Of a stretch of 64,000 bases of DNA, positions 1,326 through 54,921 are shown in pieces. A program made the position numbers and the translations under genes. This DNA is from a phage: sequence record PZ583739.1, one strand, 5' to 3'. The stretch's first letter is position 1, and every line of letters begins with the position of its first letter. A model generated the notes under the pieces. That model was not told the origin of the DNA and searched no databases. It saw nothing but the letters and a program-made list of their open reading frames with translations.

Positions 1326-1663
1326 TTCCACCACCTCTTTTTCATTTTAATCTTATCAATTTCATCTTGTATTTGCATTGTAACACACTTTTCTACATGC
1401 ACAGCAAGCTCCGCTTTGCGGTCTTCGGAAGGGGTGCCGAAATCAACTGAAACTTTTCCAGATGGTTCAATTTTAATTCCGGTTACGTACACAATGTGAC
1501 TGGACCCATCAGGGAGTGATAACAGAATTTCCTGTCGTACAGTTCCCATGGATTGCCGGATAATCTCCAAACTTTTTTCGTAGTAAGGTACAGAAGGAGC
1601 CTTAGCTCCCTCCGCATCTTTCTCGAAATTATCTAAATCAGATAAATCGATATCATTCATCAA
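1319..1663 (-). CDS. 40: gp40-like small protein (head vertex assembly factor in T4), 114 aa
   Basis: Position between uvsX and 41 as in T4; size matches; sequence identity not verified. Confidence 0.5.
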   Translation of the reverse strand: MMNDIDLSDLDNFEKDAEGAKAPSVPYYEKSLEIIRQSMGTVRQEILLSLPDGSSHIVYVTGIKIEPSGKVSVDFGTPSEDRKAELAVHVEKCVTMQIQDEIDKIKMKKRWWKW

Positions 1664-2831
1664 GGTCTTCCATCATATCTAAATCGTTTTCGATATCTGC
1701 AGCGGACGGTTTTGTCTTACCTTCAGGAGCAGAGTATTTTTCAACCTTGGAGGCAATAAGCGCATCAACTTCGGCATCAACAACAGCATTGCTATCGATT
1801 GCACCCAGTTGGTAATGGCGTTTGATTGCATCACGGAAAGGTTCGTGTTTAAACAGCGGCCCCCAGAATTCGGTGCAGTTAGTATCTTTTGCGCGCCATG
1901 ATTTTTCTTCGCGGACCATTTCCCCGGTCTCAACATCAAGATATTCACGGTTATACCAACCAACTTTTGGTTTAACCACAAATCCGATTTCTATTGCCAT
2001 ATCAAGCAGGCCAGAATACGGGTCAATACCGCCATCGAATTTTACATCAATGAAGAATTTACTTTTCTCTTTGACCATACGAGATTTTTCGGCGTTCAGA
2101 ACAAATTGGAAGCCTTCAAGTTCTTTACCAGTTTCTTTAATCTGACGTTTACCGATAATGAATACAGTGTCCGCGGAATACATAACACCTGTGCCACCGG
2201 TCATAACGGTTTTACTGTACATCTCAATCGTCTCGATTGTATGGTTAACCGCGACACAAGGAATATCCTTGATACTAAAATAAGGGGTAACAATACGGAA
2301 CAGAGATTTCAGGGATTTAGCACGAGTCATATCGCCAACGACTTTTTCGTTCATCGCATCTTCTGTTTCTTTTTTCGACGCCATGTTACCGATTGAGTCA
2401 ATAAAGATAATGACTTTTTCACCACGCTCAATTGCTTCAAGCTGGTTAACCATATCAACTTTCAATTGTTCAACCGACTGGATTGGTGTATGGATAACAC
2501 GCTCCGGGTCTACTTTCATTGCACGAAGATATGCTTCTGTGATACCAAATTCTGAATCATAGAACAAACAGATTGCGTCGGGGTATTTGTTCATATATGC
2601 AGAGACCATCGTTAAACCCATATTGGATTTAAAGTGTTTTGACGGACCAGCAAAAATAGTCAAACCTGACTGCATACCACCATCTAGTGCACCGCTGATT
2701 GCAATGTTCAGCATCGGGATTTTTGTACGAACTACATCTTTATCATTAAAGAACTTGGACTTGGTAAGAGTCGCAGTCATTTTGGATGTAGAAGCTTTAA
2801 TCAAACGGGATTTCAAATCTGCAATAGACAT
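1653..2831 (-). CDS. uvsX: UvsX recombinase (RecA/Rad51-like)
   Basis: 392 aa; MSIADLKSRLIKASTSKMTA...GLTIFAGPSKHFKSN (Walker A)...near-collinear with T4 UvsX over full length. Confidence 0.96.
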   Translation of the reverse strand: MSIADLKSRLIKASTSKMTATLTKSKFFNDKDVVRTKIPMLNIAISGALDGGMQSGLTIFAGPSKHFKSNMGLTMVSAYMNKYPDAICLFYDSEFGITEAYLRAMKVDPERVIHTPIQSVEQLKVDMVNQLEAIERGEKVIIFIDSIGNMASKKETEDAMNEKVVGDMTRAKSLKSLFRIVTPYFSIKDIPCVAVNHTIETIEMYSKTVMTGGTGVMYSADTVFIIGKRQIKETGKELEGFQFVLNAEKSRMVKEKSKFFIDVKFDGGIDPYSGLLDMAIEIGFVVKPKVGWYNREYLDVETGEMVREEKSWRAKDTNCTEFWGPLFKHEPFRDAIKRHYQLGAIDSNAVVDAEVDALIASKVEKYSAPEGKTKPSAADIENDLDMMEDLDE

Positions 2832-2884
2832 TCATTTTTTCCATAGGCACCATTATATTTTTCTCACAGGTTTAAGATAGGATA

Positions 2885-2911
2885 ATTATATCACTGTATT
2901 TTCAGAGCAAT
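2885..2911 (-). promoter_or_regulatory. Candidate MotA-dependent middle promoter upstream of uvsX
   Basis: Minus strand reads TTGCTCTGA (MotA-box-like) then 11 nt then TATAAT. Confidence 0.3.
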
Positions 2912-3173
2912 TAACGATTGAATCCACGATTAATTGCACGTTCAACAATCTTCCGGGTCTGACGTTTGTCCCACCAGTACATAAAACCAATACCAAATGC
3001 AGACAACAGCCATAGGCTAATCAATAACATACCAATCATAATATTCTTCTCGCAGTTCAGAGCAATTTAGTAAACGTTACCACGTTTCCAGTTTTCTTCA
3101 TTCAAATGCTTATTACGCTTTTCTAATAGCAACAAACCAATTACTGTTACAACAATCAGAAGTAATAATAACA

Positions 3174-3677
3174 TCAGTTAATACCTTGGCGTGCTTTCTC
3201 TTTAGCCACACATTTATTAATATAGCTCAGACGGTTTTGAGCAGAACGCTGATACATATCGCGGTACTCATTAGCTTTTGGAGAACCCGTCTCCGCTGCC
3301 TGATAAGCTTCTGCGCGCATGATGTTTATCTGCATATTGATATATGACATGCAGACCTGTGAAATCTGGTTAACAGTATCCAGGTCATTTTGTCGCTTAG
3401 TTTCTGCTTCCAGCTTGGCAATGATTTCGTCATGCTTCGCAGCTTGCTCGCGTTTGTACTCAATTTCTTGTTGAGCATATTTCGCGCAGTTGTTTCCACA
3501 TTGATTGTTGTCGCGTTTGTAGATAAGTCCAGTACCGCCTTTGAAATCAAAGGAACCATTATGCACCTGACGGTCTGCAGCAATTCGCGCTTTACCAATC
3601 TCGTTGGCATTAACAACATCACCCTGGTAAGCACAACCAGATAGCAGCATAACAGCTGCGATAGCTAACTTTTTCAT
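3174..3677 (-). CDS. Predicted lipoprotein, 167 aa
   Basis: N-terminus MKKLAIAAVMLLSGC (signal peptide + lipobox); RBS GAGGAAA upstream of ATG at 3677; ORF-track start at 3704 is a longer extension. Confidence 0.55.
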   Translation of the reverse strand: MKKLAIAAVMLLSGCAYQGDVVNANEIGKARIAADRQVHNGSFDFKGGTGLIYKRDNNQCGNNCAKYAQQEIEYKREQAAKHDEIIAKLEAETKRQNDLDTVNQISQVCMSYINMQINIMRAEAYQAAETGSPKANEYRDMYQRSAQNRLSYINKCVAKEKARQGIN

Positions 3678-3827
3678 TGTATTTTCCTCAATTAAAACAT
3701 TCATAGCGGGCTTGGAGCCCCAAAAATACCCAACCCAAAATTAAAGTTGGAATCATATGCGGAGTCATTATTGCCCAATAGATTGACATACTAAAAAATG
3801 CAATCAGTACAATAATTGTAATTATCT

Positions 3828-4070
3828 TCATTTTGCTTCCTTGATGATAATTACTTGTGCGTTTGATTTACGTTCAGCAACGAGTGCCCAGATAAATGCA
3901 ATAAACCATCCGACCATTGTCCAACCTAACAGGAGGTTAACAAAGAAGATTCCACAATTACTTTTGGTACCACGCAGCAGCGCGATAATCCACGGCAGAA
4001 AATATGCCAGTGCAGCCAGGAAGAAAGAACCCGCACCAAGAACAACAGTACCCGCAATTAATGTTTCCAT
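3828..4070 (-). CDS. imm: Small two-TM membrane protein, Imm-like by position (superinfection immunity)
   Basis: 80 aa, two hydrophobic helices, lies immediately upstream of gene 43 where T4 imm lies; homology not verified. Confidence 0.45.
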   Translation of the reverse strand: METLIAGTVVLGAGSFFLAALAYFLPWIIALLRGTKSNCGIFFVNLLLGWTMVGWFIAFIWALVAERKSNAQVIIIKEAK

Positions 4071-4139
4071 TTTAATATCCTTAAGTTATTCATCAGTTGA
4101 TGAGGTAATCATACGGCAATCCATTGCCGTTGTAAACAC

Positions 4140-6854
4140 TTAAAAGTCAAACATATCAAAAAGAGTTGCTTTCTTTTCGTAATCAACCTTTGCAGCTTCA
4201 GAGAAACCTGTTAATGGCTTAACAAAAGTCTTCTGGAACAGTATGTTGTAGTCCATCCACTGCAGAACCTGGTCACGGATTTCAATCGGGAGTTCAATCC
4301 CAGATGGCCATGCAATCACGGTTTCACCAAACGGGTTACCGACTTTAAGAGGAAGTACATACACCTTTTCCCCTTCCATGATTTGTGGAACAGTCTTCAG
4401 ACCTTTAGTTGCACGCATATATGCAAGCACACCTTTGATATGAGCCGGGCACTTAAATCCAGGGAAACCGCCTTCATTATATTTCTGGATGTTGTTAACC
4501 GATGATACACCTGCGATGGTCATGTAGTTAAGCTCATTAAATTCCTTATTGAATTCCTTGAAGTATGTCTGCAGAGATTCTTCACCTTCTTGCAGCATAC
4601 GGCGGATACATTCTTTCAGAGCTTTCTGACATGCCTTTGGAGTACTCGACTTTTGAGTTTCCAGACCCATGATTTTCAATTTCGGAACAGCATATCGTGT
4701 GCCTTCCATATCGTACACGTTCAGTGCATAACGCTTCTTCGCCGTCCAGAATCCACCCACACCCTTAGAACCCAGCGGAGGACATGCAATCGCTTCACGG
4801 TCCATAAACATAAGGTGCTGTTTGTTGTTCATGTATTCAGCCAGCTCACGGAAAGCTTTATCGATTGCCGGTTCCAGACGGTCTTTCGCAAACTTGTCCA
4901 TGAAGTCAACCAGGTGGTTTGTATCACGGAATTTAGATTCGCCACCAACCTTTTTAATCAGGTTATCGCACTGGATATAAATGGAGTCAGTATCGCCATA
5001 GAACACATAAGTTTCGCCGCTTGTCCCACAGACACTATCGAAGTATTCGTTAACTTTACGCTCAATCCACTGCAATGCAAGTTGTCCGAAAGATGTAATC
5101 GCGGTTGCATTTCGCAGGTCAAAGTAACGGAACCAGATATTGCCCAGAGCGCCATAACAACTGTTGATAAGCAGTTTACGGTTAATCTGTGCGGTCATGC
5201 CTGCAACTTCTTCCATCTGCGCTTTGTACAACATACCATTCAGGACTGTTTGATTCAGACCATGCAGGGCCGTTTTCATATTGTCATCAAAGTCATGACG
5301 ATAATCAACTTCTGGTTCGGTTGTGCCAGTTCCTGGATTACGCAGAGCTTCCTTAATCAGTTCACCATTACGTTGAGCCGCAAGCATATAGCCTTTGTGC
5401 TCTTTACGCTGATTAAACACCTTGGTGACTTCTGTCGGAATAATACCCGCAACATCTTTAAAATACATCATACCATTTGGAGCACAACTAAATGTATCAG
5501 ATGGACGGTCAGCAGTTCCTGCGATGTATTCATACATCGGCGCTGGGGCAAATGAACCGGCAATCGTTTCTGGACTGATATTAATCTGTCGGATGATGCT
5601 TGGATACAGAGATGTTAAGTCACAGCTCATCACATATTTGTACGCGTTCGGAATAGGTTCCTTAACAAATGCACCAGGGAACGATTGACGAACATGCGAT
5701 TTGGTTTCCGGAATGACTTTGTTTTGAGTCTTCAGGCTGTTAAAGATAATCGCATCCCAAGTTTTGATTGGGCTGAATACAGACTGAATCTGCATTTTTG
5801 CGTAATAACCCATTGACTGACTCAGGTTAATAAACTGCCGCTTACGGTCAATCTGCACAACACGATAAACGTCGATGATGTTATAAGAAATATACCGCTG
5901 GTGATTTGATTCACGCAGTTTAGAAATCGGACCATCATACGGGAGTTTACCAACACCCAGTTCAGATTCCGCAACATAATCCAACGAATAAGACGGTTGG
6001 TTTGTGAAGCTGAACTTTTTATACAGGTCCAGATAATCCAGAACAGAGATACCCAGAATCTGAATGATTTCTTGTTCTTCACCAAAGCCGTTGTTAATGA
6101 CCTTAACTTTTGTACGACGATGTGGGCTCAGACGTTTTGCCGTAGCTTCACCAAATACATTTTTAAGACGGTTGTAGATATATGGAATATCAAACTTCTC
6201 GATGTTCCAACCGGTTAACATAACCGGAGTTTTCTCGTTCCAGAATACCAAATACTGCTGGAGCATTTCTTCTTCTGAATCGAAAGCCATATAAACAATT
6301 TTTTCCAGGATTTCTTCAGGGACTTCATCACCACCGTCTTCCTGCAGCTTAGCAGCAATATCAATAGACCATTGCTCCACAGTGGCGTATGGTGAGCCCA
6401 AAAGGTCAAAGACATAGAATTTATCGTCTACCGAATCATAGTGCGTCAGGGCATCAATAGGGTGACGTGCTTCAGACGGTTCAGGGAACCCATCAGGAGA
6501 TGTCACCTCGATATCGAAGTTAGCAACACGGATTTTACTTGAATCATATTTGATTTCGTGTGGGTAACGGTCGGACAAGTATGCGAGTTTAAAGTCATCC
6601 ATACCCATAACTTCGAGGCCCATGTCATTCATTCGCTTCATCCACTGGGATGCATCACGCATGGAATCGAATTCTTTTTTCACACAACCTTTATTATAGA
6701 TGTCTGTATACTTTGCAGCCTGGCCTTCCCGGGCGTGCATAAACAAGCATGGGGCATAAGGGATTTCACGAACACGTTCATGACCATTCTTGTCAATATA
6801 TCGTTCGAGTAGGTTGTCACCGATTTGTTCGATAGTTAAATAAAATTCTTGCAT
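4140..6854 (-). CDS. 43: DNA polymerase gp43 (family B, with 3'-5' exonuclease)
   Basis: 904 aa; exo motifs FDIEV, Pol motifs DLTSLYPSII, KLLINSCYG, YGDTDS; C-terminal ...KKATLFDMFDF as in RB69/T4 gp43. Confidence 0.98.
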   Translation of the reverse strand: MQEFYLTIEQIGDNLLERYIDKNGHERVREIPYAPCLFMHAREGQAAKYTDIYNKGCVKKEFDSMRDASQWMKRMNDMGLEVMGMDDFKLAYLSDRYPHEIKYDSSKIRVANFDIEVTSPDGFPEPSEARHPIDALTHYDSVDDKFYVFDLLGSPYATVEQWSIDIAAKLQEDGGDEVPEEILEKIVYMAFDSEEEMLQQYLVFWNEKTPVMLTGWNIEKFDIPYIYNRLKNVFGEATAKRLSPHRRTKVKVINNGFGEEQEIIQILGISVLDYLDLYKKFSFTNQPSYSLDYVAESELGVGKLPYDGPISKLRESNHQRYISYNIIDVYRVVQIDRKRQFINLSQSMGYYAKMQIQSVFSPIKTWDAIIFNSLKTQNKVIPETKSHVRQSFPGAFVKEPIPNAYKYVMSCDLTSLYPSIIRQINISPETIAGSFAPAPMYEYIAGTADRPSDTFSCAPNGMMYFKDVAGIIPTEVTKVFNQRKEHKGYMLAAQRNGELIKEALRNPGTGTTEPEVDYRHDFDDNMKTALHGLNQTVLNGMLYKAQMEEVAGMTAQINRKLLINSCYGALGNIWFRYFDLRNATAITSFGQLALQWIERKVNEYFDSVCGTSGETYVFYGDTDSIYIQCDNLIKKVGGESKFRDTNHLVDFMDKFAKDRLEPAIDKAFRELAEYMNNKQHLMFMDREAIACPPLGSKGVGGFWTAKKRYALNVYDMEGTRYAVPKLKIMGLETQKSSTPKACQKALKECIRRMLQEGEESLQTYFKEFNKEFNELNYMTIAGVSSVNNIQKYNEGGFPGFKCPAHIKGVLAYMRATKGLKTVPQIMEGEKVYVLPLKVGNPFGETVIAWPSGIELPIEIRDQVLQWMDYNILFQKTFVKPLTGFSEAAKVDYEKKATLFDMFDF

Positions 6855-9131: not shown

Positions 9132-9827
9132 TTAATCTTGGAATTCGTGGCTAGAGCCTTGTTCCATTGCAATCACATAGCTTGCTTGTGTGCCTTCAAA
9201 CTTCGTAGCAAATTTATCATCTTTCGCCCAAAGCATAACACGGTAATCAGCCGGAATCATTTTCATATTCAGTTTGTTAATGATAAATTTAAACGCTGCA
9301 TCGCCTTCGTAATCGCCACACACCAGGGAATACAATGGACGCGCTAATTCTTTATCTTCGAGCTGGTTATAACCATGGATAACAATCTTACCGTCTTTGT
9401 TGGTGATTGCAAAAGTGTCCAGAGACAAACCACCAGCCACACGCAGAAGCTGCTGCAGGTCACTGCCTTTCAGGTCGAAGATAACCTTAGCTACCGGGAA
9501 AGGAATCTTCTTAGCAGGGAACACGATAGTGCTCGGGTCAGCTGCAGGCCAGTGAATCGTTGAACGTTGGTCTTTGATAATGATATTCGATGCATCTTCA
9601 GACAGAGATACTTCAGCTTGGTCAGTTACCAGGCCCAGGATACTTAAGAAGCCGTTCAGGTCATAAATTGCCGCTTCAAAGTCGATTGTATCATTGATTT
9701 CAGATTCACCATATGACGCTCCAGTTACAGAACGAGTTAGGATGGTATTGCCTGGTTTAAGCATAATGCCAGAGTAGATGGAGGTGAAGTTTTTCAAAAC
9801 TGCGATGGTGTCACGACTAAATTTCAT
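9132..9827 (-). CDS. 45: Sliding clamp gp45
   Basis: 231 aa; MKFSRDTIAVLKNFTSIYSGIMLKPG...FWPAADPST...LQQLLRV; collinear with T4 gp45. Confidence 0.95.
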   Translation of the reverse strand: MKFSRDTIAVLKNFTSIYSGIMLKPGNTILTRSVTGASYGESEINDTIDFEAAIYDLNGFLSILGLVTDQAEVSLSEDASNIIIKDQRSTIHWPAADPSTIVFPAKKIPFPVAKVIFDLKGSDLQQLLRVAGGLSLDTFAITNKDGKIVIHGYNQLEDKELARPLYSLVCGDYEGDAAFKFIINKLNMKMIPADYRVMLWAKDDKFATKFEGTQASYVIAMEQGSSHEFQD

Positions 9828-10711
9828 TTCATTTTCCTATTAACATAATAATTTGACCAGGACCGGATTGCACCCTGATAGTTTTCATCATTAAACCCAT
9901 GTTCAATGGCGTGTTTTCTAAACTTAATATACCCTGGTTGGCCTAAAGCATTCCACAATGCTTTAAGTTCATCTTCATACTGTAACCAGGTTCCTCTTGC
10001 TTTAGATTTCCTAAATTTTTCTTTAAATTCAGGGTTGGCATTTCGTTCGGTTGCTCGTTTTGAAGCCTTTATTCTATTATCTGAATTATTCCAATATTCA
10101 GTAATTGATTTTAAATATTTTTCATATACTTCAGATGTATTCATTATAGCTTTGAATTTTAAAGCATACTCAACATCTTTATAACGATTTTTGACTTCAA
10201 CAGACCTTGCTTGTCGAGCTTCGTCAGTCCAATATTCTTTTTGGAAGTCTTTAATTGCTTGAATGTGCTTATCTGAAATTGAACAATCTTTACGAACACC
10301 AACATAATCAGATGTAAGTTCAGATGGATGTAATTTAACAACTTTACCCGTTTTCAAGTTTCGGTATGGAGCATATCCAGGAGCATCATAGCGGCTTTTG
10401 TCGTGTGCATACGTTTTATTAAAGTATTTCTCATTGGTTACAGCTTTAACTGACATTTGAAAAATATTTTCTATTTTCCTTGGGTCCTGTTTTGTTTCCC
10501 CAATGATAGTAACAATATAGTCACCGCTATCAATTAATTCATTATACAGCGTAGTATATTTTGAATTCGGAGAACCTGTATAAATTTTATTATTTTTATC
10601 GAGAATATTTTGGCCATTAAATGTCGTATCAACCTTTGAACCAATATAATAACAAGGGAATTCATTATTTTGTTCCCTTGTTATAAAGGTTATTTTATAA
10701 ATCAAATTCAC
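9824..10711 (-). CDS. GIY-YIG family homing endonuclease (Seg-like), free-standing
   Basis: N-terminus LIYKITFITREQNNEFPCYYIGSK fits the GIY-(10-11 aa)-YIG motif; inserted between 45 and rpbA; basic C-terminal half. Confidence 0.7.
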   Translation of the reverse strand: MNLIYKITFITREQNNEFPCYYIGSKVDTTFNGQNILDKNNKIYTGSPNSKYTTLYNELIDSGDYIVTIIGETKQDPRKIENIFQMSVKAVTNEKYFNKTYAHDKSRYDAPGYAPYRNLKTGKVVKLHPSELTSDYVGVRKDCSISDKHIQAIKDFQKEYWTDEARQARSVEVKNRYKDVEYALKFKAIMNTSEVYEKYLKSITEYWNNSDNRIKASKRATERNANPEFKEKFRKSKARGTWLQYEDELKALWNALGQPGYIKFRKHAIEHGFNDENYQGAIRSWSNYYVNRKMK

Positions 10712-13254: not shown

Positions 13255-13501
13255 AATAAGCATCCTTGATGCATGATTCAGCCATATGAATTAATGTCTC
13301 TGGAGTATCATCTTCCATTACATTAAAGCTAAATTCCACGGCCCAATCGGTGACTACATAGACTTTGATAAGTTGACCAGTTTCCCGGTCAGTGATAGCT
13401 TCAAACCAATACTTAATAGTATTCGGTTGATTATCGTCGTCAACCACAGCACATTCGCGGATATGTTCAAGACCCGCTTCATTAAAATCATAAAGTCTCA
13501 C
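13238..13501 (-). CDS. Hypothetical protein, 87 aa
   Basis: Small acidic ORF between 47 and 46. Confidence 0.4.
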   Translation of the reverse strand: MRLYDFNEAGLEHIRECAVVDDDNQPNTIKYWFEAITDRETGQLIKVYVVTDWAVEFSFNVMEDDTPETLIHMAESCIKDAYYDEDF

Positions 13502-14517
13502 GGTTGCACCTCAAGGTATAATTTGTTGGCCAATGCTTTGAGAGCTTTTGATTCTTTCTCATTGGCGTCAGGTAATGCATCGATATATTCTGCCATCATA
13601 TCTGTTAAGCGTTTTATGTCTAACTCTTCATCAGAGTCTGATGTGTCAACACTGTTATCAACCTTATTGACAACACGCAATTCATGCACACGCTTTTCTA
13701 ATTCAGATTCGAACTTGGTCAGGTCTTTATCGACTTTTTCTACAATAACACGGACTGATAAGTCTTTGAAGTCGTCGTAGTTAATAGTTTCGTTTGGATA
13801 GAAAATCTTCCGATGCCAGGTGGTTTCATTCGGAATAAATTTCATCTCTTTGGTTTCGGTATCAAATTCCCAGAACCCGCGTGGGTCGTTCTCGTCACCT
13901 GCTGTTAATGTCCATGGTGTCCCGATGTACTTAACGTTTGCAGCTTCTGAAATTGTGTGGAAGTGACCAGACCAAACTTGCTTGTACTTCTTAAGGAAAT
14001 CAGGCTCAAGTCCGTGGGATTTCAATCCTTTATAGAAATAAAACCCGGTTAATTCCCAGTGACCGATGCAATATTCAGCCCCAGAAGTTTTGATATGTTG
14101 GTGAATGTCAGTTGCGTTCTCGTCACACATCCATGGAATCATATCAATCTGACAACCGTCAAAATCAACAGTCGTTGGCTTATCGTAGATTTTAACATGG
14201 TCATACTTATTCAGGAGTTCAGTGATAGCATTAGGATGAATCTTATTCTTCAGATTCATGTCATGGTTCCCGACTATCGTGTGCATAGTAATTCCTGCTT
14301 CACGAAGGAGTTCCATAATCTCACGGCTGAATTCCATCGTCTTATGCGTTACGGCCTTACGGACGTCAAAAATATCCCCATATTGAATCCAGACTTTAAT
14401 CCCATTCGCTTTGGAATATGCAATCGCCTGTAAAATACCATCGCGTTGAATGTTTTGAGCCCATGGGTCGTCAGCTTTGACACCTAAGTGCCAATCACCT
14501 AAATTTAAAATTTTCAT
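13498..14517 (-). CDS. 47: Recombination nuclease gp47 (Mre11/SbcD-like phosphoesterase)
   Basis: Start trimmed to MKILNLGDWHLG; motifs GDWH, GDIFD, GNHD, GHFH; collinear with T4 gp47. Confidence 0.94.
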   Translation of the reverse strand: MKILNLGDWHLGVKADDPWAQNIQRDGILQAIAYSKANGIKVWIQYGDIFDVRKAVTHKTMEFSREIMELLREAGITMHTIVGNHDMNLKNKIHPNAITELLNKYDHVKIYDKPTTVDFDGCQIDMIPWMCDENATDIHQHIKTSGAEYCIGHWELTGFYFYKGLKSHGLEPDFLKKYKQVWSGHFHTISEAANVKYIGTPWTLTAGDENDPRGFWEFDTETKEMKFIPNETTWHRKIFYPNETINYDDFKDLSVRVIVEKVDKDLTKFESELEKRVHELRVVNKVDNSVDTSDSDEELDIKRLTDMMAEYIDALPDANEKESKALKALANKLYLEVQP

Positions 14518-14657
14518 AAGCCAAGCACCGTTATCGCAATGCAAAATAAAATTACTGAAATGAACCCGTCAGGAGTAGAAAAGAATCCTATCCAACAAGC
14601 TCTTGTGAATGTGTAGAATGCCATGAATAACACGACATATCCTAAAAATAATTCCAT
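14514..14657 (-). CDS. Small hydrophobic protein, 47 aa
   Basis: Hand translation MELFLGYVVLFMAFYTFTRACWIGFFSTPDGFISVILFCIAITVLGL; RBS GGAGAG; stop overlaps gene 47 start; below ORF-track size cutoff. Confidence 0.3.
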   Translation of the reverse strand: MELFLGYVVLFMAFYTFTRACWIGFFSTPDGFISVILFCIAITVLGL

Positions 14658-14700
14658 ATACTCTCCTCAGTTGGTTCATTTTATCATCCCGAATATAAAG

Positions 14701-14724
14701 CAAAAAAGGAAGCGCTAGGCTTCC
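14701..14724 (-). terminator. Rho-independent terminator
   Basis: Minus-strand hairpin GGAAGCcuagcGCUUCC followed by UUUUUU. Confidence 0.55.
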
Positions 14725-14946
14725 TTTCCAATTAATACACCATACAGAGGTTCATGAGAAGACCTGAACTTGATAGGCTTATAGGTAATAGTACCTTCAT
14801 TTTCTGCTTTAATGCGAGCGGCTTCAAATTGAAGTATCATCTCATTTTTGTCAGATTTAATCTTATCAAAATCCGTCGAATTCGTCATTCATATAGCCTC
14901 TTAAAAATCCGGGTGTTCGTCTTTCATTAGCCACCTGTCCATGTTA

Positions 14947-15147
14947 TCATCGTTGCCACCATTTCTTAAGTTGATGAGAATCGACCCAAACCTTGGCTAC
15001 AGGCTCAATCTTAAAAATACCATCAGAATATTGGCCCATCATTTTGTATTCGGTTTCGGTCTGCTTGATACAGATATTACCATATGAGCGAAGTCTGAAA
15101 GCGGCTCCAACAAGAAGCCGTTTAAAAGGTTTATTTACTAATGCCAT
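14947..15147 (-). CDS. Hypothetical protein, 66 aa
   Basis: ORF in 47-55 interval (where T4 carries alpha-gt). Confidence 0.35.
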   Translation of the reverse strand: MALVNKPFKRLLVGAAFRLRSYGNICIKQTETEYKMMGQYSDGIFKIEPVAKVWVDSHQLKKWWQR

Positions 15148-15442
15148 TTACGATTTCCCAAATTTGTTTGCGAGTAGAATCCCACATCAACTTAATCAGG
15201 TCTTCCGTAACGGGTTGGCGGTAAATCCCACGCAGTTTAACTAAAGCGTATTTGTATGCTTCAAAATTGTTTTCCAGCACTGCGCCTTGAGCATGCTTAT
15301 TCAGTCGTGCAATTTCACGAGCATTCTTTTTCAGAATCTTTGCCGCTTGACTCTGTGCTTCGAGTGCGTTCGCTTCTTCGAGACGTTCCTGTGCTTCTTC
15401 AATCTGCTTATCGGTCAGTTGAGAAATATCTGGAGCTTGCAT
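15131..15442 (-). CDS. Hypothetical protein, 103 aa
   Basis: ORF in 47-55 interval; helical, no motif recognised. Confidence 0.4.
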   Translation of the reverse strand: MQAPDISQLTDKQIEEAQERLEEANALEAQSQAAKILKKNAREIARLNKHAQGAVLENNFEAYKYALVKLRGIYRQPVTEDLIKLMWDSTRKQIWEIVNGISK

Positions 15443-15443
15443 A

Positions 15444-15677
15444 TTAATCCTTGGGAGTTAACTCAATTGTAAAATATAGATTAGCATTATCCACATGATA
15501 ACGGTAATCAACGTTATTATCCGGCGAAGTAAATTCCAGATTCCGGACGTTTAAAGGGTCGATATCAATTGGAAGACCTTTTATGTCTCGCAGATAAAGT
15601 TTAATGAAATATGGGAGCGCAGTAAAGTCTTCCTCGATTTTATCTAAAAAATCGGTAATATCAAATTGATGTTCCAT
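15444..15677 (-). CDS. Hypothetical protein, ~77 aa
   Basis: ORF immediately upstream of gene 55; start trimmed to first ATG. Confidence 0.35.
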
Positions 15678-16218
15678 ATAAAAAATCCAAATCACCTTCT
15701 TTATCTTTGGCGCTCTTATCAGACCCTGGCGCTTTAACTAAAGAGGATTCGTACTGTGTCATTTTGTCATAGATGTCCTGGATAAATGTTTCATCAGCCA
15801 GAGCCACCATATCGTCGTCACGTGAATCATACACGTTATGAACGAAGTAGCTATATTTCTTTGCCATTTCTTTACGTTCTTTTTTGATACGCTGAACGAA
15901 AGCATTGAAGCAAGCCATTGTTATGTAAGCATGTGGATTATCGTATTTTGTTTCGTCGAAGTTATGAAGACCTTTTATTGCGGCCTCAATTCCGTCTGCA
16001 ATCATTTCTTGCTTCCAGGATTGGGTATATCCGGAGAAGTTGAAACGTTTGCTAAGACCTTCGGCTATAAGCATAATTGCCAGACCAATAACATCGTTCT
16101 GGCGAATAATTTTATTCGGGTCGGTGTTCGCATTCAGCTTCTGTTTCCACTCCGAAATAGCTTTCAGAAGCTCTTTATTATTTACATAGTTATTCTTGGT
16201 TAATTTAATTTCGTTCAT
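15661..16218 (-). CDS. 55: Late-transcription sigma factor gp55
   Basis: 185 aa; [16 protein letters not shown]...[35 protein letters not shown]..., near-identical to T4 gp55. Confidence 0.96.
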
Positions 16219-19419: not shown

Positions 19420-19509
19420 GCATTGATAAGCACTAAACTATACTGCGAATAAAATTCTGGACCAAAATGAAAAATCATATCATTTATAGTACCCATAATG
19501 TAATTCAAT

Positions 19510-19980
19510 TTAATCATGTTTCCACACCCCATCGGTATTTGACCAAAGTCGCTGATTATCTGACCCTCGCCACAGTTTTTTGGTCGGAAGATTTTTCTCA
19601 TACTTCCCATCAATAATAACATCAACATATTTAAGCATTTCTAGTTGTTTAATATCTTCAAACTTATATCCTGTCCACATCCAAATGCTTTTATTGGGAT
19701 AAAGATTTTTAATAGTTTGAACCACAGAGTGAATAACATCTCGGTTATCAGGATAGAGAGGGTCTCCTCCAGTTATAGTTAATCCTTCTATATAATCATT
19801 ATTCAAACATTCAATTAATTGTTCTAGTGTTTCACCAGTGAATGGAACGCCATTTCTAGCATTCCATGTTGATTTATTATAACACCCTTCGCATTTATGC
19901 AAACAACCTGTAACGAAAAGAACGACCCTACAACCAGGGCCATTCACAAAATCGCAAGGATAAATTCTATCATAATTCAT
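19510..19980 (-). CDS. nrdG: Anaerobic ribonucleotide reductase activating protein NrdG (radical SAM)
   Basis: 156 aa; CDFVNGPGCRVVLFVTGCLHKCEGCYN radical-SAM cluster motif. Confidence 0.92.
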   Translation of the reverse strand: MNYDRIYPCDFVNGPGCRVVLFVTGCLHKCEGCYNKSTWNARNGVPFTGETLEQLIECLNNDYIEGLTITGGDPLYPDNRDVIHSVVQTIKNLYPNKSIWMWTGYKFEDIKQLEMLKYVDVIIDGKYEKNLPTKKLWRGSDNQRLWSNTDGVWKHD

Positions 19981-21794
19981 TGATGTTTAACCCTATGCAT
20001 GATTTCTTTATTTTTGCCAAGATTAAACCCGCGTTCGTTCGGATTTCCCAAATAGCCACATGTTCTTCTTATTGTGTTCATCTTTTTAGGGTCAGTTTCT
20101 CCACAAATGGAACAAACAAATCCGTTTTCAGTAGGAGTCATTTCATGAGTACTTCCACACGTAAAACATTTATCTACTGGCATATTAACACCAAAATAAT
20201 CTAAATGTTGTGCAGCATAATCCCATGCAGCCTCAAGACCTTTTAGGTTATTTTTCATATCAGGAAGTTCAACATAAGAAATGTGACCACCTGTCGCAAT
20301 GAAATGATATGGGGCTTCACGAGAAATCTTTTCAAACGGGGTAATATTTTCTTCTACTGAAACGTGGAAACTGTTAGTGTACCAGCCTTTATCGGTAACA
20401 TCTTTTACACTTCCATATTTTTCGGCATCGAGTTTACAGAAGCGATAACACAGGTTTTCAGCAGGAGTAGAATACAAGCTAAAAGCAAATCCGGTTCTTT
20501 CGGTCCACTGCTTAAGACGAGCATTCATTTTAGTCAAAATTTCCTGTCCAATATCACGACCGACAAGAATATTCAATTCGTGAATACCGATGTATCCTAA
20601 AGACACTGAACTTCTGCCATTTTTAAATAACTCAATTATATCGTCATCAGGTTTAAGACGAACCCCAAATGCACCTTCTTGGTAAAGAATAGGAGCAACA
20701 GTCGCTTTAACTCCTTTTAAGGAACTAATTCTACACATCAAAGCTTCAAAACATAAATCCATTCGCTCATTGAATAATTCATCAAATTTCTGTTCATTGA
20801 ATTGTGTTCCAATATAAGAATCTAATGCAATGCGAGGAAGATTCAGTGTTACAACACCAAGATTATTACGTCCATCAAGAATTTCATTACCAGTCGAATC
20901 TTTCCATACGCTCAAGAAACTACGGCAACCCATTGGAGAAACAGGAATAGATGAACCGGTGATAGCTTTATTGTTCTTAGCCGAAATGATGTCAGGATAC
21001 ATTCTTTTGCTTGCACACTCTAAAGCAAGCTGCTTAATATCATAGTTCGGGTCGTCTTTATAAAGATTAACACCTTCTTCAACAAACATAACAAGTTTAG
21101 GGAAAATAGGAGTTATCCCATCGCGACCAAGACCTTTGATACGATTTTTCAGAATTGCTTTCTGAATCATTCGTTCAGTCCAGTCAGTTCCCGTGCCAAA
21201 CGTAATTGTCACAAAAGGCGTTTGCCCATTTGAACTAAAGAGCGTATTTACTTCATATTCATAAGCTTGGAATGCATCATATACGTCTTTTTCTGTTTTA
21301 GATTGAGCATAATTCAATGCATCAGTGATTTGCCATTTTTCTGCATCTTCAATATGTTTTGCGTATGTACGTTTAACATAAGGAGAAAATACTTTGTCTA
21401 CATTAGCAAAAGTCGTTCCACCATATTGGTGAGAAGCAACCTGTGCAGTAATTTGTGCCATAATTGCAGTAGCAACACCAATTGATTTAGGAGTTTCAAT
21501 CTGCGCATTACCGAGCTTAAACCCGTTCTCAAGCATTCCTTTTAAATCTACTAAACAGCAATTAGTAAATGGAAGAGCGGGGGAATAATCAATATCATGG
21601 AAATGAATAATTCCACTTTCATGTGCTTTCATAATAAAAGACGCGACCATATTTTTGGCAATGTGTTTAGATACAATACCAGCCATAAGGTCCCGTTGAG
21701 TTGGAAAAACACGAGAATCTTTATTAGCATTCTCGTTTAAAAGGTCTTTATTAGTTTTATGAATCAATCCTTCAATTTCGTTTTCAATTGTCAT
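19977..21794 (-). CDS. nrdD: Anaerobic ribonucleoside-triphosphate reductase NrdD
   Basis: 605 aa; C-terminal glycyl-radical motif RRTCGYLG and Zn-ribbon CxxC...CxxC. Confidence 0.95.
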   Translation of the reverse strand: MTIENEIEGLIHKTNKDLLNENANKDSRVFPTQRDLMAGIVSKHIAKNMVASFIMKAHESGIIHFHDIDYSPALPFTNCCLVDLKGMLENGFKLGNAQIETPKSIGVATAIMAQITAQVASHQYGGTTFANVDKVFSPYVKRTYAKHIEDAEKWQITDALNYAQSKTEKDVYDAFQAYEYEVNTLFSSNGQTPFVTITFGTGTDWTERMIQKAILKNRIKGLGRDGITPIFPKLVMFVEEGVNLYKDDPNYDIKQLALECASKRMYPDIISAKNNKAITGSSIPVSPMGCRSFLSVWKDSTGNEILDGRNNLGVVTLNLPRIALDSYIGTQFNEQKFDELFNERMDLCFEALMCRISSLKGVKATVAPILYQEGAFGVRLKPDDDIIELFKNGRSSVSLGYIGIHELNILVGRDIGQEILTKMNARLKQWTERTGFAFSLYSTPAENLCYRFCKLDAEKYGSVKDVTDKGWYTNSFHVSVEENITPFEKISREAPYHFIATGGHISYVELPDMKNNLKGLEAAWDYAAQHLDYFGVNMPVDKCFTCGSTHEMTPTENGFVCSICGETDPKKMNTIRRTCGYLGNPNERGFNLGKNKEIMHRVKHQ

Positions 21795-23131: not shown

Positions 23132-23812
23132 TTATTCATTATTCTTTTTCCTAGCATCAGAAGCAGCTTTTCTTCTAGCTCTGGTCCTTTCTAAATCAGC
23201 GGCAATCAAATTAGCTATATTAGTAACCGGATTACCAAATTCATCATAAGTAATATATTTCCAAGCATATCCAAATGTATGATTTCTCTCATTAAGAAGG
23301 CATCTTTTAATAGCACTGCCTGCTTTATAAATTGAAAGAAATTTAGCTGCATCTGGTAAATAATCAAAGGTTTCTACCAATTCACCTGAACTTAAATCAA
23401 ATGCGCCAAAAAGCTCAATGGTGTATTTACTCCTATCAAGACTGGCTTTAGCTTCATGCTTTAAGTGGTTTATTTCTTTTAGAATTTTAAGGTCTAATTG
23501 TCCTGGTATTTTATCTATCTGTACACCCATTCTAGATAAAGCATATCCCATTTTATAGTTTCCTGATTTGGCCAACCAATAGTGGGCCATAATATGGCTT
23601 TCTATACTTAGATTTACAAGATTCCATTTAGACGTTTTAAATTCAGGAAATAACGATTTAGGTAATATATGGTGAGACTCGGTTTTACCTTTTATTAAAG
23701 GTCCGGAAGACTCTATTAAAGAGAAATAGTTTTCAGCAAATTGCCTTATTGGCAATTTGCTTTTAAGAAGTTCTTTAATTTCGTCTAAGGTTTTAGTAGG
23801 CTTAACGGTCAC
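23132..23812 (-). CDS. HNH homing endonuclease (Mob-like), free-standing
   Basis: 226 aa; ESHHILPKSLFPEFKTSKWNLVNLSIESHIMAHYW matches the HNH motif of T4 Mob endonucleases. Confidence 0.65.
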   Translation of the reverse strand: MTVKPTKTLDEIKELLKSKLPIRQFAENYFSLIESSGPLIKGKTESHHILPKSLFPEFKTSKWNLVNLSIESHIMAHYWLAKSGNYKMGYALSRMGVQIDKIPGQLDLKILKEINHLKHEAKASLDRSKYTIELFGAFDLSSGELVETFDYLPDAAKFLSIYKAGSAIKRCLLNERNHTFGYAWKYITYDEFGNPVTNIANLIAADLERTRARRKAASDARKKNNE

Positions 23813-29679: not shown

Positions 29680-30426
29680 ATGATTTTGTCCGGAAGAACT
29701 ATTGATGAACTCAATGAAAAAGTCCAGGCCGCCTTGGCTGATAATTGGTATTTGTTTGGTTCTACTGTGGTGTTGCCAAATACACCTACGGATAGCAAAG
29801 AACGTTTTTTCCAAACTATGTCCAACTCGGAAACTCAGATACCGGGCCCGCCTGGACCAAAAGGAGAACCGGGTGTGTCCGGGCCCAAAGGAGACCCAGG
29901 CGGGGCTGGAAAATCTTCTTATCAGATATGGCTTGACTTGGGGAATACAGGAACTGTTGATGATTTTTTAACTGATACAGCGGGAAAGAGGGAAAAATCC
30001 GAGGTGTTTTGGAGTGGTATAAACGTTCTATTAACTAATGGTGCGACTTCAAACATAATTAGTATTTTAAAGGGGATTCCGCCGACAGCAGGGACTCTAT
30101 CTCCGTTTTTTAGAACCGCTGATGATAAGTTGTGGCCATATAACCAAGACAGAAGCCTAATGTTTAAACTCAACCTTATTGGTAATTTTACAGGAGCCTC
30201 GCAAGCTCGAAGTATAACATTAAATTTCGTTGGAACCAACGGAAACACTTATATACAGAATCGTCCGGAAAATGCTACAGATATTTTGTCTTTTACGACG
30301 TTCTTTAGCATTGATAAAGATGGGGCAATGGCAACCAATGGTACAGCTATAACTGTTACGCCAAATGGCGGCAACTTTACAATAACCTCTGCATTGTTAG
30401 TAGCCGAACAAACAGTGACTTCGTAA
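29680..30426 (+). CDS. Collagen-repeat fibre-like protein, 248 aa, on the opposite strand to its neighbours
   Basis: Strong RBS AAAGGAGAAAG 7 nt before ATG; seven Gly-X-Y triplets (GPPGPKGEPGVSGPKGDPGGAG) followed by KSSYQIWLDLGNTGTVDDFL, a motif I associate with phage tail-fibre proteins; Asn/Thr/Gly-rich C-terminus. Confidence 0.6.
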   Translation: MILSGRTIDELNEKVQAALADNWYLFGSTVVLPNTPTDSKERFFQTMSNSETQIPGPPGPKGEPGVSGPKGDPGGAGKSSYQIWLDLGNTGTVDDFLTDTAGKREKSEVFWSGINVLLTNGATSNIISILKGIPPTAGTLSPFFRTADDKLWPYNQDRSLMFKLNLIGNFTGASQARSITLNFVGTNGNTYIQNRPENATDILSFTTFFSIDKDGAMATNGTAITVTPNGGNFTITSALLVAEQTVTS

Positions 30427-41856: not shown

Positions 41857-42440
41857 TTACGGCATTCCTCAATAAAAGAGTTCAATGTATTTTTCTTATT
41901 GATATCGTCATATAGCTTTTTAACTTTAGAAATACGAAAAGGTACTTCAATAGCCATAGTCCATAAAAATGATGCAATAAGTCCAACAGCAGCAGAAGAA
42001 AGGCACGCGCCCATTACAGCTACAGGTGCTTCATTTTTACCTGTCAAGAAAAACAACAGGATTGGTAAAAATAAGATTCCAGTCCACGCATAAAACCTGG
42101 AACAAATTAACTTATCAAATTCATCTTTCCAGGTACGAAATCCATATTTCTTGCTATAAGAAATTAATGGGTCGGGTGTCTGTTCTTTGAGTGGTTCTGG
42201 TTGATACCCATTAATGATGTATCCCATTTTATATTCCTTAATTAAAAGCTCTTTAACATGACGATTGCATCGCGACCAATCAACATTTTCCACCTTGATT
42301 CCTTCATCACCATCATCAAGGTTCGCCCAATATTTTTTGGTAATCATAAATTCATCTCTTGATACAATTATACCTGTATTTTCTGCCCGGCGGATGAAGT
42401 TTACATCAACACCCATACAACCGGGTTCATAAAGGGCCAT
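41853..42440 (-). CDS. Membrane protein with soluble N-domain, two TM helices and C-terminal ...FIEECRK tail
   Basis: 195 aa; hydrophobic helices ILFLPILLFFL and VAVMGACLSSAAVGLIASFLW; tail motif shared with 45448-46676 proteins. Confidence 0.45.
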   Translation of the reverse strand: MALYEPGCMGVDVNFIRRAENTGIIVSRDEFMITKKYWANLDDGDEGIKVENVDWSRCNRHVKELLIKEYKMGYIINGYQPEPLKEQTPDPLISYSKKYGFRTWKDEFDKLICSRFYAWTGILFLPILLFFLTGKNEAPVAVMGACLSSAAVGLIASFLWTMAIEVPFRISKVKKLYDDINKKNTLNSFIEECRK

Positions 42441-43126
42441 TACCAGCCCTCCATAGGGAATTCCAGATATACTTGAGCATTAACGCGGATTTCATTTGTA
42501 ATCTTTTTAACACGGTCGGTATTACGAGACACACGACCAAACCAGCGCCAACCGTTACTTACTGCACGAGAACCTGTATGCCATGTCTGCCAATCAAACT
42601 GGAGCAACGTGCGGTCAGGAGCATCCCACTTGGTTAATTCATTGGACTCAATTTTTTCCAGAACTTCTTTATGCCACTGGCGATAGATAAGTTCGCCTTC
42701 AGGAATCTGACTAAATTGGGCAGTTCCGGTCGCAAAATAAGTAGGACACACATCAGCGTTAACAAGACCAAGAATATGTTCAGAATGGTAACGAGGATTA
42801 TCATAATCAGGTTGCCCTGCAGTAATAAAGTGTTGACCAACCGGAATATCCTGGCGCGGTACATCATCATGGTGATAACCTGGGATAGCAGGATACCAAC
42901 CAGGCATTAACATATGTACACGAGAATCGAATACGACATTTTCATTAGTCCAATCAATCGGAAGATTGGCAATAAAACTACGAGTGATTGGGCCGCCTTT
43001 ATCCCAAGCAAAACTCAAATCGCAGTTAAAGAACATTGGTTCATTTTTGATTTGATCGTTTTGAACATCGTGAGCAAAACCACTTACGGCACGAGCTCGG
43101 CTATTAAACACTTTAGAACTATTCAT
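42440..43126 (-). CDS. Hypothetical protein, 228 aa
   Basis: Trp/His-rich ORF; TIR AATGAGGAAAATATT-ATG. Confidence 0.5.
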   Translation of the reverse strand: MNSSKVFNSRARAVSGFAHDVQNDQIKNEPMFFNCDLSFAWDKGGPITRSFIANLPIDWTNENVVFDSRVHMLMPGWYPAIPGYHHDDVPRQDIPVGQHFITAGQPDYDNPRYHSEHILGLVNADVCPTYFATGTAQFSQIPEGELIYRQWHKEVLEKIESNELTKWDAPDRTLLQFDWQTWHTGSRAVSNGWRWFGRVSRNTDRVKKITNEIRVNAQVYLEFPMEGW

Positions 43127-43185: not shown

Positions 43186-44145
43186 TTATTTTGCGAAAGG
43201 ACGAATTAAATGTTGGTTAGCTTTAAAACGTTTAACATAGTCTTCGTGCCCCAGGGTGTTGTACATATTAACCACTTCCTGGTAATGTTCCCAGGCATAC
43301 TCACGGAACCATCCAGAAGTAATGGAGGTGCAGACTTTTTCCAGCGCAATATGGAAGCTCACGGATGGAGAGATATTGAACTCATTAGGAACCTGCGAAC
43401 GCTCCAGAGCGAGCACACATGCTTCTTCATAAACCCCTGCCAGTTTAATAACATCAGGGAGTGCTTCAAATTTTTCACGCGAGGTCATGACTTCTGAATC
43501 ATCCTTCATATAGAACTTATATGCAGGCTTATCAGCAAGCGCCACGGCCTCGTGGATGGAGTCATGGTCAAGGGTATAGATTGTATCATTAAAGAAAGTT
43601 TTCTTGCCCACGTCTAGTTTAGGGTGACTGTATGACAGTGTCTCTGCCTGACGCTGCAGCATGATTTTCTGCAGTTCATCATTAAGAACAATACCCTTAT
43701 TGCGAAGGTAATTAATATGACTCATGGTCTTCAGGAAGAATGGATTGTTCTTCAGGTAACGATGAGATAATTTAATTGCCAGACAAATATCAGGAGTTGC
43801 CCAGTAAAAACCTGTAAGACGATCTTTTTTAATATGATTTTCAGCATATTTCAGGAGACGATAACTTGAGGTGAAATCTTCGTCTTGAAGCTCACCAGTA
43901 ATTTCTCGTACGTTGGTCAGGGCACGGACAATATAAGCTTCAAAATAGGTTTCTTTGCCATTGTACATACATTTAAAAGCTTGGACGTTAGGGTTATCCA
44001 CAGGAACATGAGCACCGAACATACGTGCTTTAAAGTGGTTCCAGGAGCCTTGGTCAGCGATAAAGTCCCAATCAGAGTTTTCAATTTTCTGACTTTCAAT
44101 CAGACCAGCGTTATGTAATGCACGAGAACCAATAACTAACATCAT
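43186..44145 (-). CDS. Hypothetical protein, 319 aa, possible nucleotidyltransferase fold
   Basis: N-terminal IGSRALHNAGLIESQKIENSDWDF loosely fits GS...DxD; TIR AATGAGGAAAATATT-ATG. Confidence 0.45.
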   Translation of the reverse strand: MMLVIGSRALHNAGLIESQKIENSDWDFIADQGSWNHFKARMFGAHVPVDNPNVQAFKCMYNGKETYFEAYIVRALTNVREITGELQDEDFTSSYRLLKYAENHIKKDRLTGFYWATPDICLAIKLSHRYLKNNPFFLKTMSHINYLRNKGIVLNDELQKIMLQRQAETLSYSHPKLDVGKKTFFNDTIYTLDHDSIHEAVALADKPAYKFYMKDDSEVMTSREKFEALPDVIKLAGVYEEACVLALERSQVPNEFNISPSVSFHIALEKVCTSITSGWFREYAWEHYQEVVNMYNTLGHEDYVKRFKANQHLIRPFAK

Positions 44146-44654: not shown

Positions 44655-44663
44655 TTTTATTCC

Positions 44664-54243: not shown

Positions 54244-54244
<1 letters not shown>

Positions 54245-54921
54245 TATATTACCTTATTAATTTTATCAAAAAGTTCTTCGAGTGTGCCATCGTTTTTAAT
54301 AACAATGTCACTAGCTAGTGGTGGAAGTCCAGCTTCCGTAATGTGTGTATCAGTAGAATGATTTGCTTCATCGCGTTCTACAAAGATTATTGTAGCACCC
54401 ATCGCCCGAAGCGAATCAAGTTCGTTCTTTTGGCGAACATCTGGGACAACGTAATATTTATATCCAGAATAGAGGTTGTCAAGATAGTCGCAGGCAAAAG
54501 TTTTAATCCAAAACATGCTGTCGAACTCTGTACAAACAATATCAGTTCCAAGGGTCTGCATGAAACGTCTAACTGTCCAGGGCTCAACATTATTTAGTGT
54601 GTGAAATTCAATAATTTTACGAACCATATCCGGATTCGGAAGGTCAAGATTGTATTGTTGTTTCAACCATTCAAGAGCATCAACCAGAAGAATATAAGCT
54701 TCGGTGTTGTTCATTATCAAGGTTTTTTCACGGTCATAACCTTGCCCATCAAAATTTTCCAGGGTCAAATTGTGTGGCAGGTCTTGACGAATCCACGCTT
54801 TATAAAGCGCTTCTTTAATCGGACCAGCAAGCTGCCACTTTGTTCCGTTTTGACTAATAACATAATCAGCAGTCGTATCTTTACCACTGCGTTTTTTACC
54901 CACAATCGCAATTAATTTCAT
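54244..54921 (-). CDS. 1: Deoxynucleoside monophosphate kinase gp1
   Basis: 225 aa; P-loop GKKRSGKDTTADYV; ...RAMGATIIFVERDEANHSTDTHITEAGLP as in T4 gp1. Confidence 0.92.

Follow-up and report, generated by a model that had tools for sequence, protein, structure and literature searches.

The 64,000-nucleotide (nt) stretch of phage DNA analysed here (sequence record PZ583739.1, called the window throughout) belongs to a Gaprivervirus (Straboviridae, Tevenvirinae) of the VR7/VR26/SP18 group, in the T4-like coliphage lineage, and it includes the uvsX-43 interval in which T4 carries b-gt (beta-glucosyltransferase) and gene 42 (deoxycytidine monophosphate, dCMP, hydroxymethylase). The phage is without every known gene for hydroxymethyl- or sugar-modified cytosine. 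The likely replacement is a changed thymidylate synthase (TS) gene, td, outside the window, and not a sugar pathway. Gapriverviruses probably make 5-methyl-dCMP by means of a Td enzyme with an Asn177Asp substitution, and their DNA would contain 5-methylcytosine (5mC) without sugar. This proposal builds on the absence of the known genes, a single ThyA-family homologue, a conserved Asn-to-Asp change, and the recurrence of that change in two T4-like phages without gp42, all observed here, together with a published rule linking active-site residues to specificity and a report that phage VR7 has modified, unglycosylated cytosines. The bare absence is already in the literature; the Td-based explanation was found in none of the papers searched.

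The first 12 kilobases (kb) of the window are 94-98% identical by megablast to Escherichia and Shigella phages VR26, VR20, VR7, SP18, TH44, and others, and a second query of 16 kb gave best relatives at 95-96%. Gene order in the window is that of T4, from gene 41 through gene 6, with most genes on the minus strand. The nearest complete annotated genome is that of VR26, with 94% nucleotide identity to the window (97-98% for other relatives), and statements about presence or absence across the genome are read in the window plus the complete VR26 genome. The VR26 annotation lists gp56, cd, td, frd, gp1, alc, denA, and denB.

Papers from 2021 and 2025 flagged the absence of modification genes as a puzzle because gp56, Alc, DenA, and DenB are kept. 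By the 2021 comparison, known enzymes for non-canonical bases are missing ("lacked any known enzymes") from Gaprivervirus, from Morganella phage MP1, and from the Acinetobacter phages ZZ1 and 133. A dCTPase is present in Gaprivervirus along with DenA, DenB, and Alc, ZZ1 and 133 keep denB, alc, and 56, and "an unknown protein" was suggested for Gaprivervirus (PMC8056088). Gordeeva et al. digested VR5 and VR7 DNA with enzymes sensitive to methylation, hydroxymethylation, or glycosylation, including the methylation-sensitive EcoRII and SalI, with and without T4 beta-glucosyltransferase (BGT). They described VR5 and T4 as glycosylated, the T4 mutant T4147 as hydroxymethylated, and VR7 in the words "VR7 has modified cytosines", unglycosylated, a label different from that of T4147, the hydroxymethylcytosine (hmC) control (PMC6326788). 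Our literature search found no report of 5mC in Gaprivervirus, VR7, or Straboviridae, with the Arch Virol papers on VR5, VR7, VR20, and VR26 lying outside its coverage.

None of the known modification genes was recovered. Searches by tblastn with T4 gp42, b-gt, a-gt, and Dam gave no match better than E=0.5; for alpha- and beta-glucosyltransferase no match was better than E=0.016, and none is annotated in VR26. The dCMP hydroxymethylase gp42 had no match by tblastn, phmmer, or hidden Markov model (HMM), while positive controls in T4 and JS98 were recovered. The VR26 annotation contains no DNA methyltransferase. A ThyA-family HMM, built from E. coli ThyA, T4-like Td, T4 gp42, and JS98 orf39, was run with filters off against all six-frame open reading frames (ORFs) of at least 60 amino acids (aa). 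It found td alone in VR26 (E=2e-131; next match E=0.2) and no ThyA-family ORF in the window, and in T4 and JS98 alike it recovered both Td and the gp42-type enzyme. Carried out on VR26, the genome-wide search for gene 42, gene 56, and glycosyltransferases thus returned gp56 and none of gene 42, a glucosyltransferase, or the RB69/JS98-type genes.

The RB69/JS98-type genes form the other known module for this position. RB69 gp48 and the enzymes related to it make 5-hydroxy-dCMP in a flavin-dependent reaction, the arabinose is attached to 5-hydroxycytosine, and Dhakaviruses are listed among the carriers (PMC13326640, NAR 2026). In JS98 and VR5, of the sister genus Dhakavirus, the uvsX-imm interval measures 5.3-5.4 kb and holds five extra genes, orf38-42, annotated as RB69 orf047c-, 048c-, 045c-, 051c-, and 052c-like. 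JS98 orf39 is distantly related to gp42 (24.5% identity, E=5e-8) and carries the D169N, N177D, L143E signature of 5-hydroxy-dCMP synthases, and no homologue of it was found in the window or VR26. Neither did JS98 orf38, 40, 41, or 42, taken as the arabinosyltransferase and uridine diphosphate arabinose genes, have a match of E<0.1 in either. The interval that a synthase and arabinosylation cluster of the RB69 gp48/DLP3 gp80 type (PMC13326640) fills in JS98 and VR5 is empty here, and Gaprivervirus has neither the orf39-type gene nor the sugar genes. The presence of the JS98 cluster in VR5 and not in VR7 fits the finding that VR5 is glycosylated and VR7 is not. The original prediction had pointed to RB69-type phages and their different sugar as a parallel; the analogy fails, as RB69- and JS98-type phages hold a modification cluster of their own in this very uvsX-imm interval and this phage is without that cluster as well. 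Both the T4-type and the RB69-type modules are missing, and the uvsX-43 and 47-55 intervals are empty sites.

A Pfam scan of 30 window and VR26 proteins, picked mainly for having no close JS98 counterpart, revealed no methyltransferase, oxygenase, TET/JBP, or glycosyltransferase family; its matches were endonucleases, a T5orf172/MUG113 (GIY-YIG-like) domain, NrdG, a tail-needle-knob protein, and DUFs. Relative to JS98, the lineage-specific ORFs comprise homing endonucleases, internal head proteins, the tail-knob protein, and short orphans.

Two further proteins were considered as replacement enzymes and rejected. A 319-aa protein with DUF7277 and DUF7275 domains (43186-44145, minus strand) cannot fill the role because it is 89% identical in JS98; such copies occur in both JS98 and RB69, phages already equipped with a ThyA-type modifier. 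Its 228-aa neighbour (42440-43126, minus strand), with no Pfam family, likewise has ∼89% identical copies in JS98 and RB69. The two are annotated as RB69 ORF134c-like and ORF132c-like, respectively.

The td gene, the sole ThyA-family gene of Gaprivervirus as read in VR26, adjoins frd. Its product has a TS fold (PF00303, E=1e-90; T4 TS structure 1TIS, E=1e-127), and a residue table places the catalytic Cys146, Arg166, Tyr94, and Glu58. At E. coli ThyA position 177, VR26 Td has Asp, VFLGLPFDIGSY, versus PFNIASY (Asn) in T4, JS98, and E. coli; the active site is otherwise that of a canonical methyl-transferring enzyme (Leu143, Cys146, His147, Asp169). All six Gaprivervirus Td sequences fetched (VR26, TH44, VR7, CJ20, P8, and TH40) carry Asp177, and none has the Asn177 by which canonical TS selects deoxyuridine monophosphate (dUMP). 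The six sequences form two sublineages that share 85% identity, and two of the carriers, VR7 and TH44, are among the closest relatives of the window. Leu143, Asp169, and Asp177 occur together in the Td of VR26, VR7, TH44, and P8.

Numbering follows the E. coli ThyA sequence and is sound, as that sequence matches all 12 residues of a published list. The list gives the residues within 6 Å of C5 of the substrate, namely W80, Y94, A142, L143, C146, H147, Q165, S167, C168, D169, G173, and N177 (PMC13326640). Among these 12, Gaprivervirus Td differs from T4 and JS98 Td at 177 alone; close by in sequence it also has Ala179Gly. According to two sources, N177D in the E. coli enzyme or N229D in that of L. 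casei turns thymidylate synthase into a dCMP methylase, with preference moving from dUMP to dCMP and 5-methyl-dCMP as product, while an acidic residue at 143 goes with hydroxymethylation and D169N with 5-hydroxylation (PMC8670742, PMC13326640). The combination of Leu143, Asp169, and Asp177 is therefore a dCMP-methylase signature by the published residue rule. The engineered mutants (Hardy & Nalivaika 1992; Liu & Santi 1992, as cited in PMC8670742 and PMC13326640) bear the same substitution and likewise keep Leu143, Cys146, His147, and Asp169; the natural Td differs from them in extra changes that may tune its predicted activity, the substitutions unique to Gaprivervirus clustering beside active-site residues (52-57, 148-149, 179, 182).

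The substitution marks the genus. Among the best 120 homologue clusters from a database of 5.8 billion proteins, Asp177 occurs in 4, all of Gaprivervirus type, and Asn in the other 116. By tblastn, td separates 33 Gaprivervirus records at 85% identity or more from every other phage at 70% or less. JS98 and T4 Td are 83% identical, and VR26 Td is 64-69% identical to either.

The same residue recurs in Acinetobacter phages 133 and ZZ1. The Td of phage 133 reads LGKPFDIASY and that of ZZ1 LGMPFDIASY, both with Asp177 and with Leu143 and Asp169 kept (td at 20517-21464 and 31-963, respectively, of the stretches examined). A Lazarusvirus Td keeps Asn177 (PFNIASY; td at 31-978 of the stretch examined), and Lazarusvirus is listed among the genera that produce 5-hydroxydeoxycytidine (PMC13326640). 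The two Acinetobacter Td enzymes with Asp177 are ∼60% identical to one another and, because they are only ∼45% identical to Gaprivervirus Td, Asn177Asp arose at least twice. In phage 133 the ThyA-family HMM finds td alone in the 75 of 160 kb scanned, a portion that includes the uvsX-43 interval.

The partner proteins of a modified-cytosine pathway are retained: gp1 in the window, and gp56, Alc, DenA, and DenB in VR26 outside it. The gp56 dCTPase of VR26 is encoded just upstream of the window start and is 80% identical to that of T4. The gp1 deoxynucleoside monophosphate kinase, alone among the enzymes of the modified-dCTP pathway in having its gene in the window, is at least 95% identical within 34 Gaprivervirus records and ∼47% identical to its T4 and JS98 counterparts; outside the genus the best among the matches listed is 54%, in Serratia phage X20. 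Its identity is 47-51% in all three comparisons between VR26, JS98, and T4, which matches three different bases in three lineages. Ranked from the lowest among 148 VR26-JS98 orthologue pairs of at least 100 aa (median identity 76.5%, 10th percentile 51%), DenB is 9th (45%), gp1 11th (47%), and Alc 14th (∼50%). DenB is 72% identical between JS98 and T4 and 46-48% between VR26 and either, and for Frd the values are 79% for JS98-T4 and 65% for VR26 (frd at 44602-45183 of the VR26 stretch examined), a divergence specific to Gaprivervirus. Proteins such as gp1, DenB, and Alc have to handle or recognise modified cytosine, and their divergence is suggestive without being decisive. The denB product is also longer in VR26 than in JS98 (197 versus 158 aa; 19434-20027 of the stretch examined).

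In the proposed pathway, gp56 would convert dCTP and dCDP to dCMP, and Td with Asp177 would use methylene-tetrahydrofolate to methylate dCMP to 5-methyl-dCMP, the dihydrofolate being recycled by Frd. The diverged gp1 kinase and the host nucleoside diphosphate kinase would then carry 5-methyl-dCMP to 5-methyl-dCTP, which gp43 would insert, giving DNA with 5mC in place of cytosine and free of sugar. Deoxythymidine monophosphate (dTMP) could come from the phage dCMP deaminase (Cd) acting on 5-methyl-dCMP, from host ThyA, or from a residual dUMP activity of Td, and gp56, Alc, DenA, and DenB would be kept as machinery that presupposes DNA free of ordinary cytosine. We infer the identity of the base as 5mC, the activity of Td, the route to dTMP, the means of coping with McrBC, and the td allele of the genome studied here. 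A wider proposal is that Gaprivervirus and, independently, phages 133 and ZZ1 discarded a separate cytosine-modifying ThyA paralogue, turned their sole Td into a dCMP methylase, acquired full 5mC genomes with dTMP supplied through Cd, and re-tuned gp1, DenB, and Alc to tell 5mC from cytosine; we regard this wider proposal as finely balanced between right and wrong.

A natural precedent for such chemistry is Xanthomonas phage XP12, in which 5mC fully replaces cytosine, a folate-dependent dCMP methyltransferase of the thymidylate-synthase family is used, and dTMP is made by deaminating 5-methyl-dCMP (PMC8543423, PMC5175136). The predicted Gaprivervirus chemistry resembles it in that a ThyA-family enzyme would methylate dCMP at the nucleotide level, a dCMP deaminase is available for dTMP, and no sugar is added. 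XP12, however, is a siphovirus of Xanthomonas whose enzyme is likened here by description and not by sequence, whereas the Gaprivervirus enzyme looks like a recently converted T4-type Td, still 64-69% identical to genuine Td, in a T4-type genome with gp56, Alc, and DenB.

Several points weigh against a 5mC genome made by Td. E. coli McrBC, McrA, and Mrr would be expected to attack a genome fully substituted with 5mC, and no arn homologue is annotated in VR26, though one relative lists a K-12 host. Loss of a dedicated dTMP synthase needs a compensating route. The td gene lies outside the window, and statements about td in the phage under study are drawn from relatives that are 94-98% identical. 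Many small hypothetical ORFs may encode something unforeseen. The base of VR7 was named as "modified" only (PMC6326788). Lastly, a gene 42 allele is listed for phage 133 (Petrov 2010, PMC2993671, Table 4), a listing in conflict with PMC8056088 and with the 75-kb scan.

The best of the alternatives is that Asp177 Td is a dCMP hydroxymethylase and that the 5-hydroxymethylcytosine in the DNA stays bare of any sugar, as it does in T4 gt- mutants. T4 gp42 also has Asp at the position equivalent to 177, the partners gp56, gp1, Alc, DenA, and DenB are those of the gp42 system, with gp56, Alc, and DenB making up the classical hmC-associated set, and bacteriophage exclusion (BREX) blocks VR7 about as strongly as the hmC mutant T4147 (PMC6326788). 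Gaprivervirus nevertheless differs from the T4 system in having no gp42 homologue and no glucosyltransferases, and its Td has at 143 the hydrophobic Leu of methyl-transferring enzymes where hydroxymethyl-dCMP synthases have Asp or Glu (Asp in gp42), and keeps His147 where gp42 has Thr. The neighbouring frd is kept, in keeping with a methylation that is reductive and oxidises folate, and T4147 was labelled "hydroxymethylated" and VR7 just "modified" despite the T4 BGT test being at hand (PMC6326788). Taken together, bare hydroxymethylcytosine is unlikely.

Quite unlikely as well is the suggestion of the 2021 and 2025 papers, by which an unrecognised enzyme outside the ThyA family, encoded by one of the lineage-specific hypothetical ORFs, makes a novel cytosine derivative. 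Several Gaprivervirus-specific ORFs are indeed without family assignment, yet, once homing endonucleases, structural proteins, and the T5orf172/MUG113 GIY-YIG-like protein are set aside, those of 60 aa or more do not exceed 188 aa, none of these ORFs matches a methyltransferase, oxygenase, or transferase family, and Asp177 Td already offers a sufficient route with precedent.

Ordinary cytosine DNA, with gp56, Alc, DenA, and DenB changed in specificity or tolerated and Asp177 Td still mainly a thymidylate synthase, is very improbable. T4-like genera without any modification system do exist (PMC2993671; PMC12115623 Table 4), and the strong divergence of Alc and DenB (46-57% identity) could mean altered function, but restriction analysis found modified cytosines in VR7 DNA (PMC6326788). 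Against it stand also a gp56 so close to T4 dCTPase and the fixation of Asp177 across the genus and its return in 133 and ZZ1, where 116 other T4-like Td clusters have Asn.

BL21(DE3) is dcm-. Post-replicative cytosine methylation by a host or phage DNA methyltransferase could in principle give EcoRII/SalI resistance through site-specific methylation, but it is hardly credible, as VR7 was grown on BL21(DE3) (PMC6326788), no DNA methyltransferase is annotated or detected, with T4 Dam unmatched, and site-specific methylation would give no protection from Alc, DenB, or a dCTP-depleting gp56.

The features of the two empty intervals and gene 1 are collected in Table 1. The uvsX-43 interval is 1308 nt long in the window, compared with 1213 in VR26, 3635 in T4, 5378 in JS98, and 5260 in VR5, and the same configuration is common to 33 records. 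The T4 layout had been described correctly beforehand, with b-gt and 42 in uvsX-43 and a-gt in 47-55; in full, T4 has segA, b-gt, 42, imm, and imm.1 between uvsX and 43, and between 47 and 55 it has 47.1, a-gt, mobB, and a-gt.2 to a-gt.5. Just ∼64 nt of the spacer, adjoining uvsX, align with JS98 or VR5, and blastn and tblastx show no remnant of the orf38-42 cluster genes between uvsX and the lipoprotein gene. The lipoprotein and the Imm-like protein that the original prediction gave as the sole content of this interval are both borne out, and to them are added a 47-aa membrane peptide and two unsupported mini-ORFs. Of the JS98 genes, orf43 (the lipoprotein), orf44, and imm have homologues in the window. 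In the lipoprotein ORF, which matched no Pfam family, the lipobox stretch MKKLAIAAVMLLSGC begins at the 10th codon; the ORF is 52% identical to JS98 orf43, and its likeness to T4 Imm.1 is confined to the N-terminus. A stretch of ∼100 nt directly downstream of the lipoprotein gene (window ∼3058-3176), which carries the 35-aa mini-ORF, is not in VR26.

In the 47-55 interval (14514..15695) a-gt and mobB are absent, and the layout matches that of JS98 and VR26. The absence of alpha-glucosyltransferase from this interval was foreseen, although the count of three small ORFs was too low, as there are five conserved ones. With the known genes absent and VR7 unglycosylated yet modified, the evidence favours both possibilities that had been raised, a different pathway encoded elsewhere and DNA not modified in the T4 manner.

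Table 1. Features of the uvsX-43 and 47-55 intervals and gene 1 in the window.
Feature	Position	Strand	Remarks
uvsX recombinase, left boundary of interval	1653..2831	-	392 aa; 98% identity to VR26 UvsX, 72% to JS98 UvsX
Spacer; site of 5-hydroxycytosine-arabinose cluster in Dhakavirus/Mosigvirus and of b-gt + 42 in T4	2832..3173	-	
Mini-ORF, 42 aa	2911-3039	-	no PHROG match
Mini-ORF, 35 aa, hydrophobic	3067-3174	-	no PHROG match
Predicted lipoprotein, 176-aa ORF, probable start 3677	3174..3704	-	lipobox LLSGC; phrog_1754 E=5e-47
47-aa membrane peptide, "42.1-like" in VR26, JS98 orf44 homologue (tblastn)	3688..3831	-	phrog_3610 E=8e-27
imm, superinfection immunity protein	3828..4070	-	PF14373 Imm_superinfect E=1e-17; 52% identity to T4 Imm
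Gene 43 DNA polymerase, right boundary of interval	4140..6854	-	904 aa; 98% identity to VR26 gp43, 78% to JS98 gp43
Gene 47, SbcD-like nuclease subunit	13498..14544	-	97% identity to VR26 gp47
47.1	14514-14657	-	PHROG match; 80% identity to T4 47.1
a-gt.2	14715-14888	-	PHROG match; T4 or JS98 counterpart
a-gt.3	14947-15147	-	PHROG match; T4 or JS98 counterpart
a-gt.4	15131-15442	-	PHROG match; T4 or JS98 counterpart
a-gt.5	15444-15695	-	PHROG match; T4 or JS98 counterpart
Gene 55, late sigma factor	15661..16218	-	100% identity to VR26 gp55
Gene 1 deoxynucleoside monophosphate kinase, strongly diverged	54244..54921	-	PF21448 E=4e-77

Other parts of the window vary among relatives. The genes nrdG (radical-SAM activase, 156 aa) and nrdD (605 aa), at 19510-21794 on the minus strand, are present as in T4 and without counterpart in VR26 or JS98, and the presence of anaerobic ribonucleotide reductase thus varies inside Gaprivervirus. 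A plus-strand ORF of 248 aa at 29680-30426, opposite in orientation to the early genes around it, contains a tail-needle-knob domain of the Sf6 type (PF16532, E=9e-33) and weakly matches collagen repeats; VR26 and JS98 lack it, but phages RZ and P8 carry it under the name "tail needle knob". Insertions relative to JS98 and/or VR26 that resemble mobile homing-endonuclease genes lie at 9824-10711, 55603-56277, 57083-57811, and 61475-62152, and the set includes a homologue of a VR26 "putative DNA endonuclease", a weak MobD-like ORF, a treble-clef zinc-finger ORF lying between genes 2 and 4, and a SegA-like ORF. A 226-aa ORF at 23132-23812, an orphan without family, is also an insertion relative to JS98 and/or VR26.

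The analysis offers a candidate enzyme and a predicted base for a case left unexplained by the comparative studies of 2021 and 2025. If the proposal is true, Gaprivervirus would be, to our knowledge, the first group of coliphages in which 5mC replaces cytosine completely. The proposal would also mean that evolution has more than once let one active-site substitution in Td stand in for an entire modification module, and it would predict how these phages behave toward McrBC, MspJI-type enzymes, BREX, CRISPR, and sequencing chemistries. Annotations of "td" in T4-like genomes would then need a check of residue 177.

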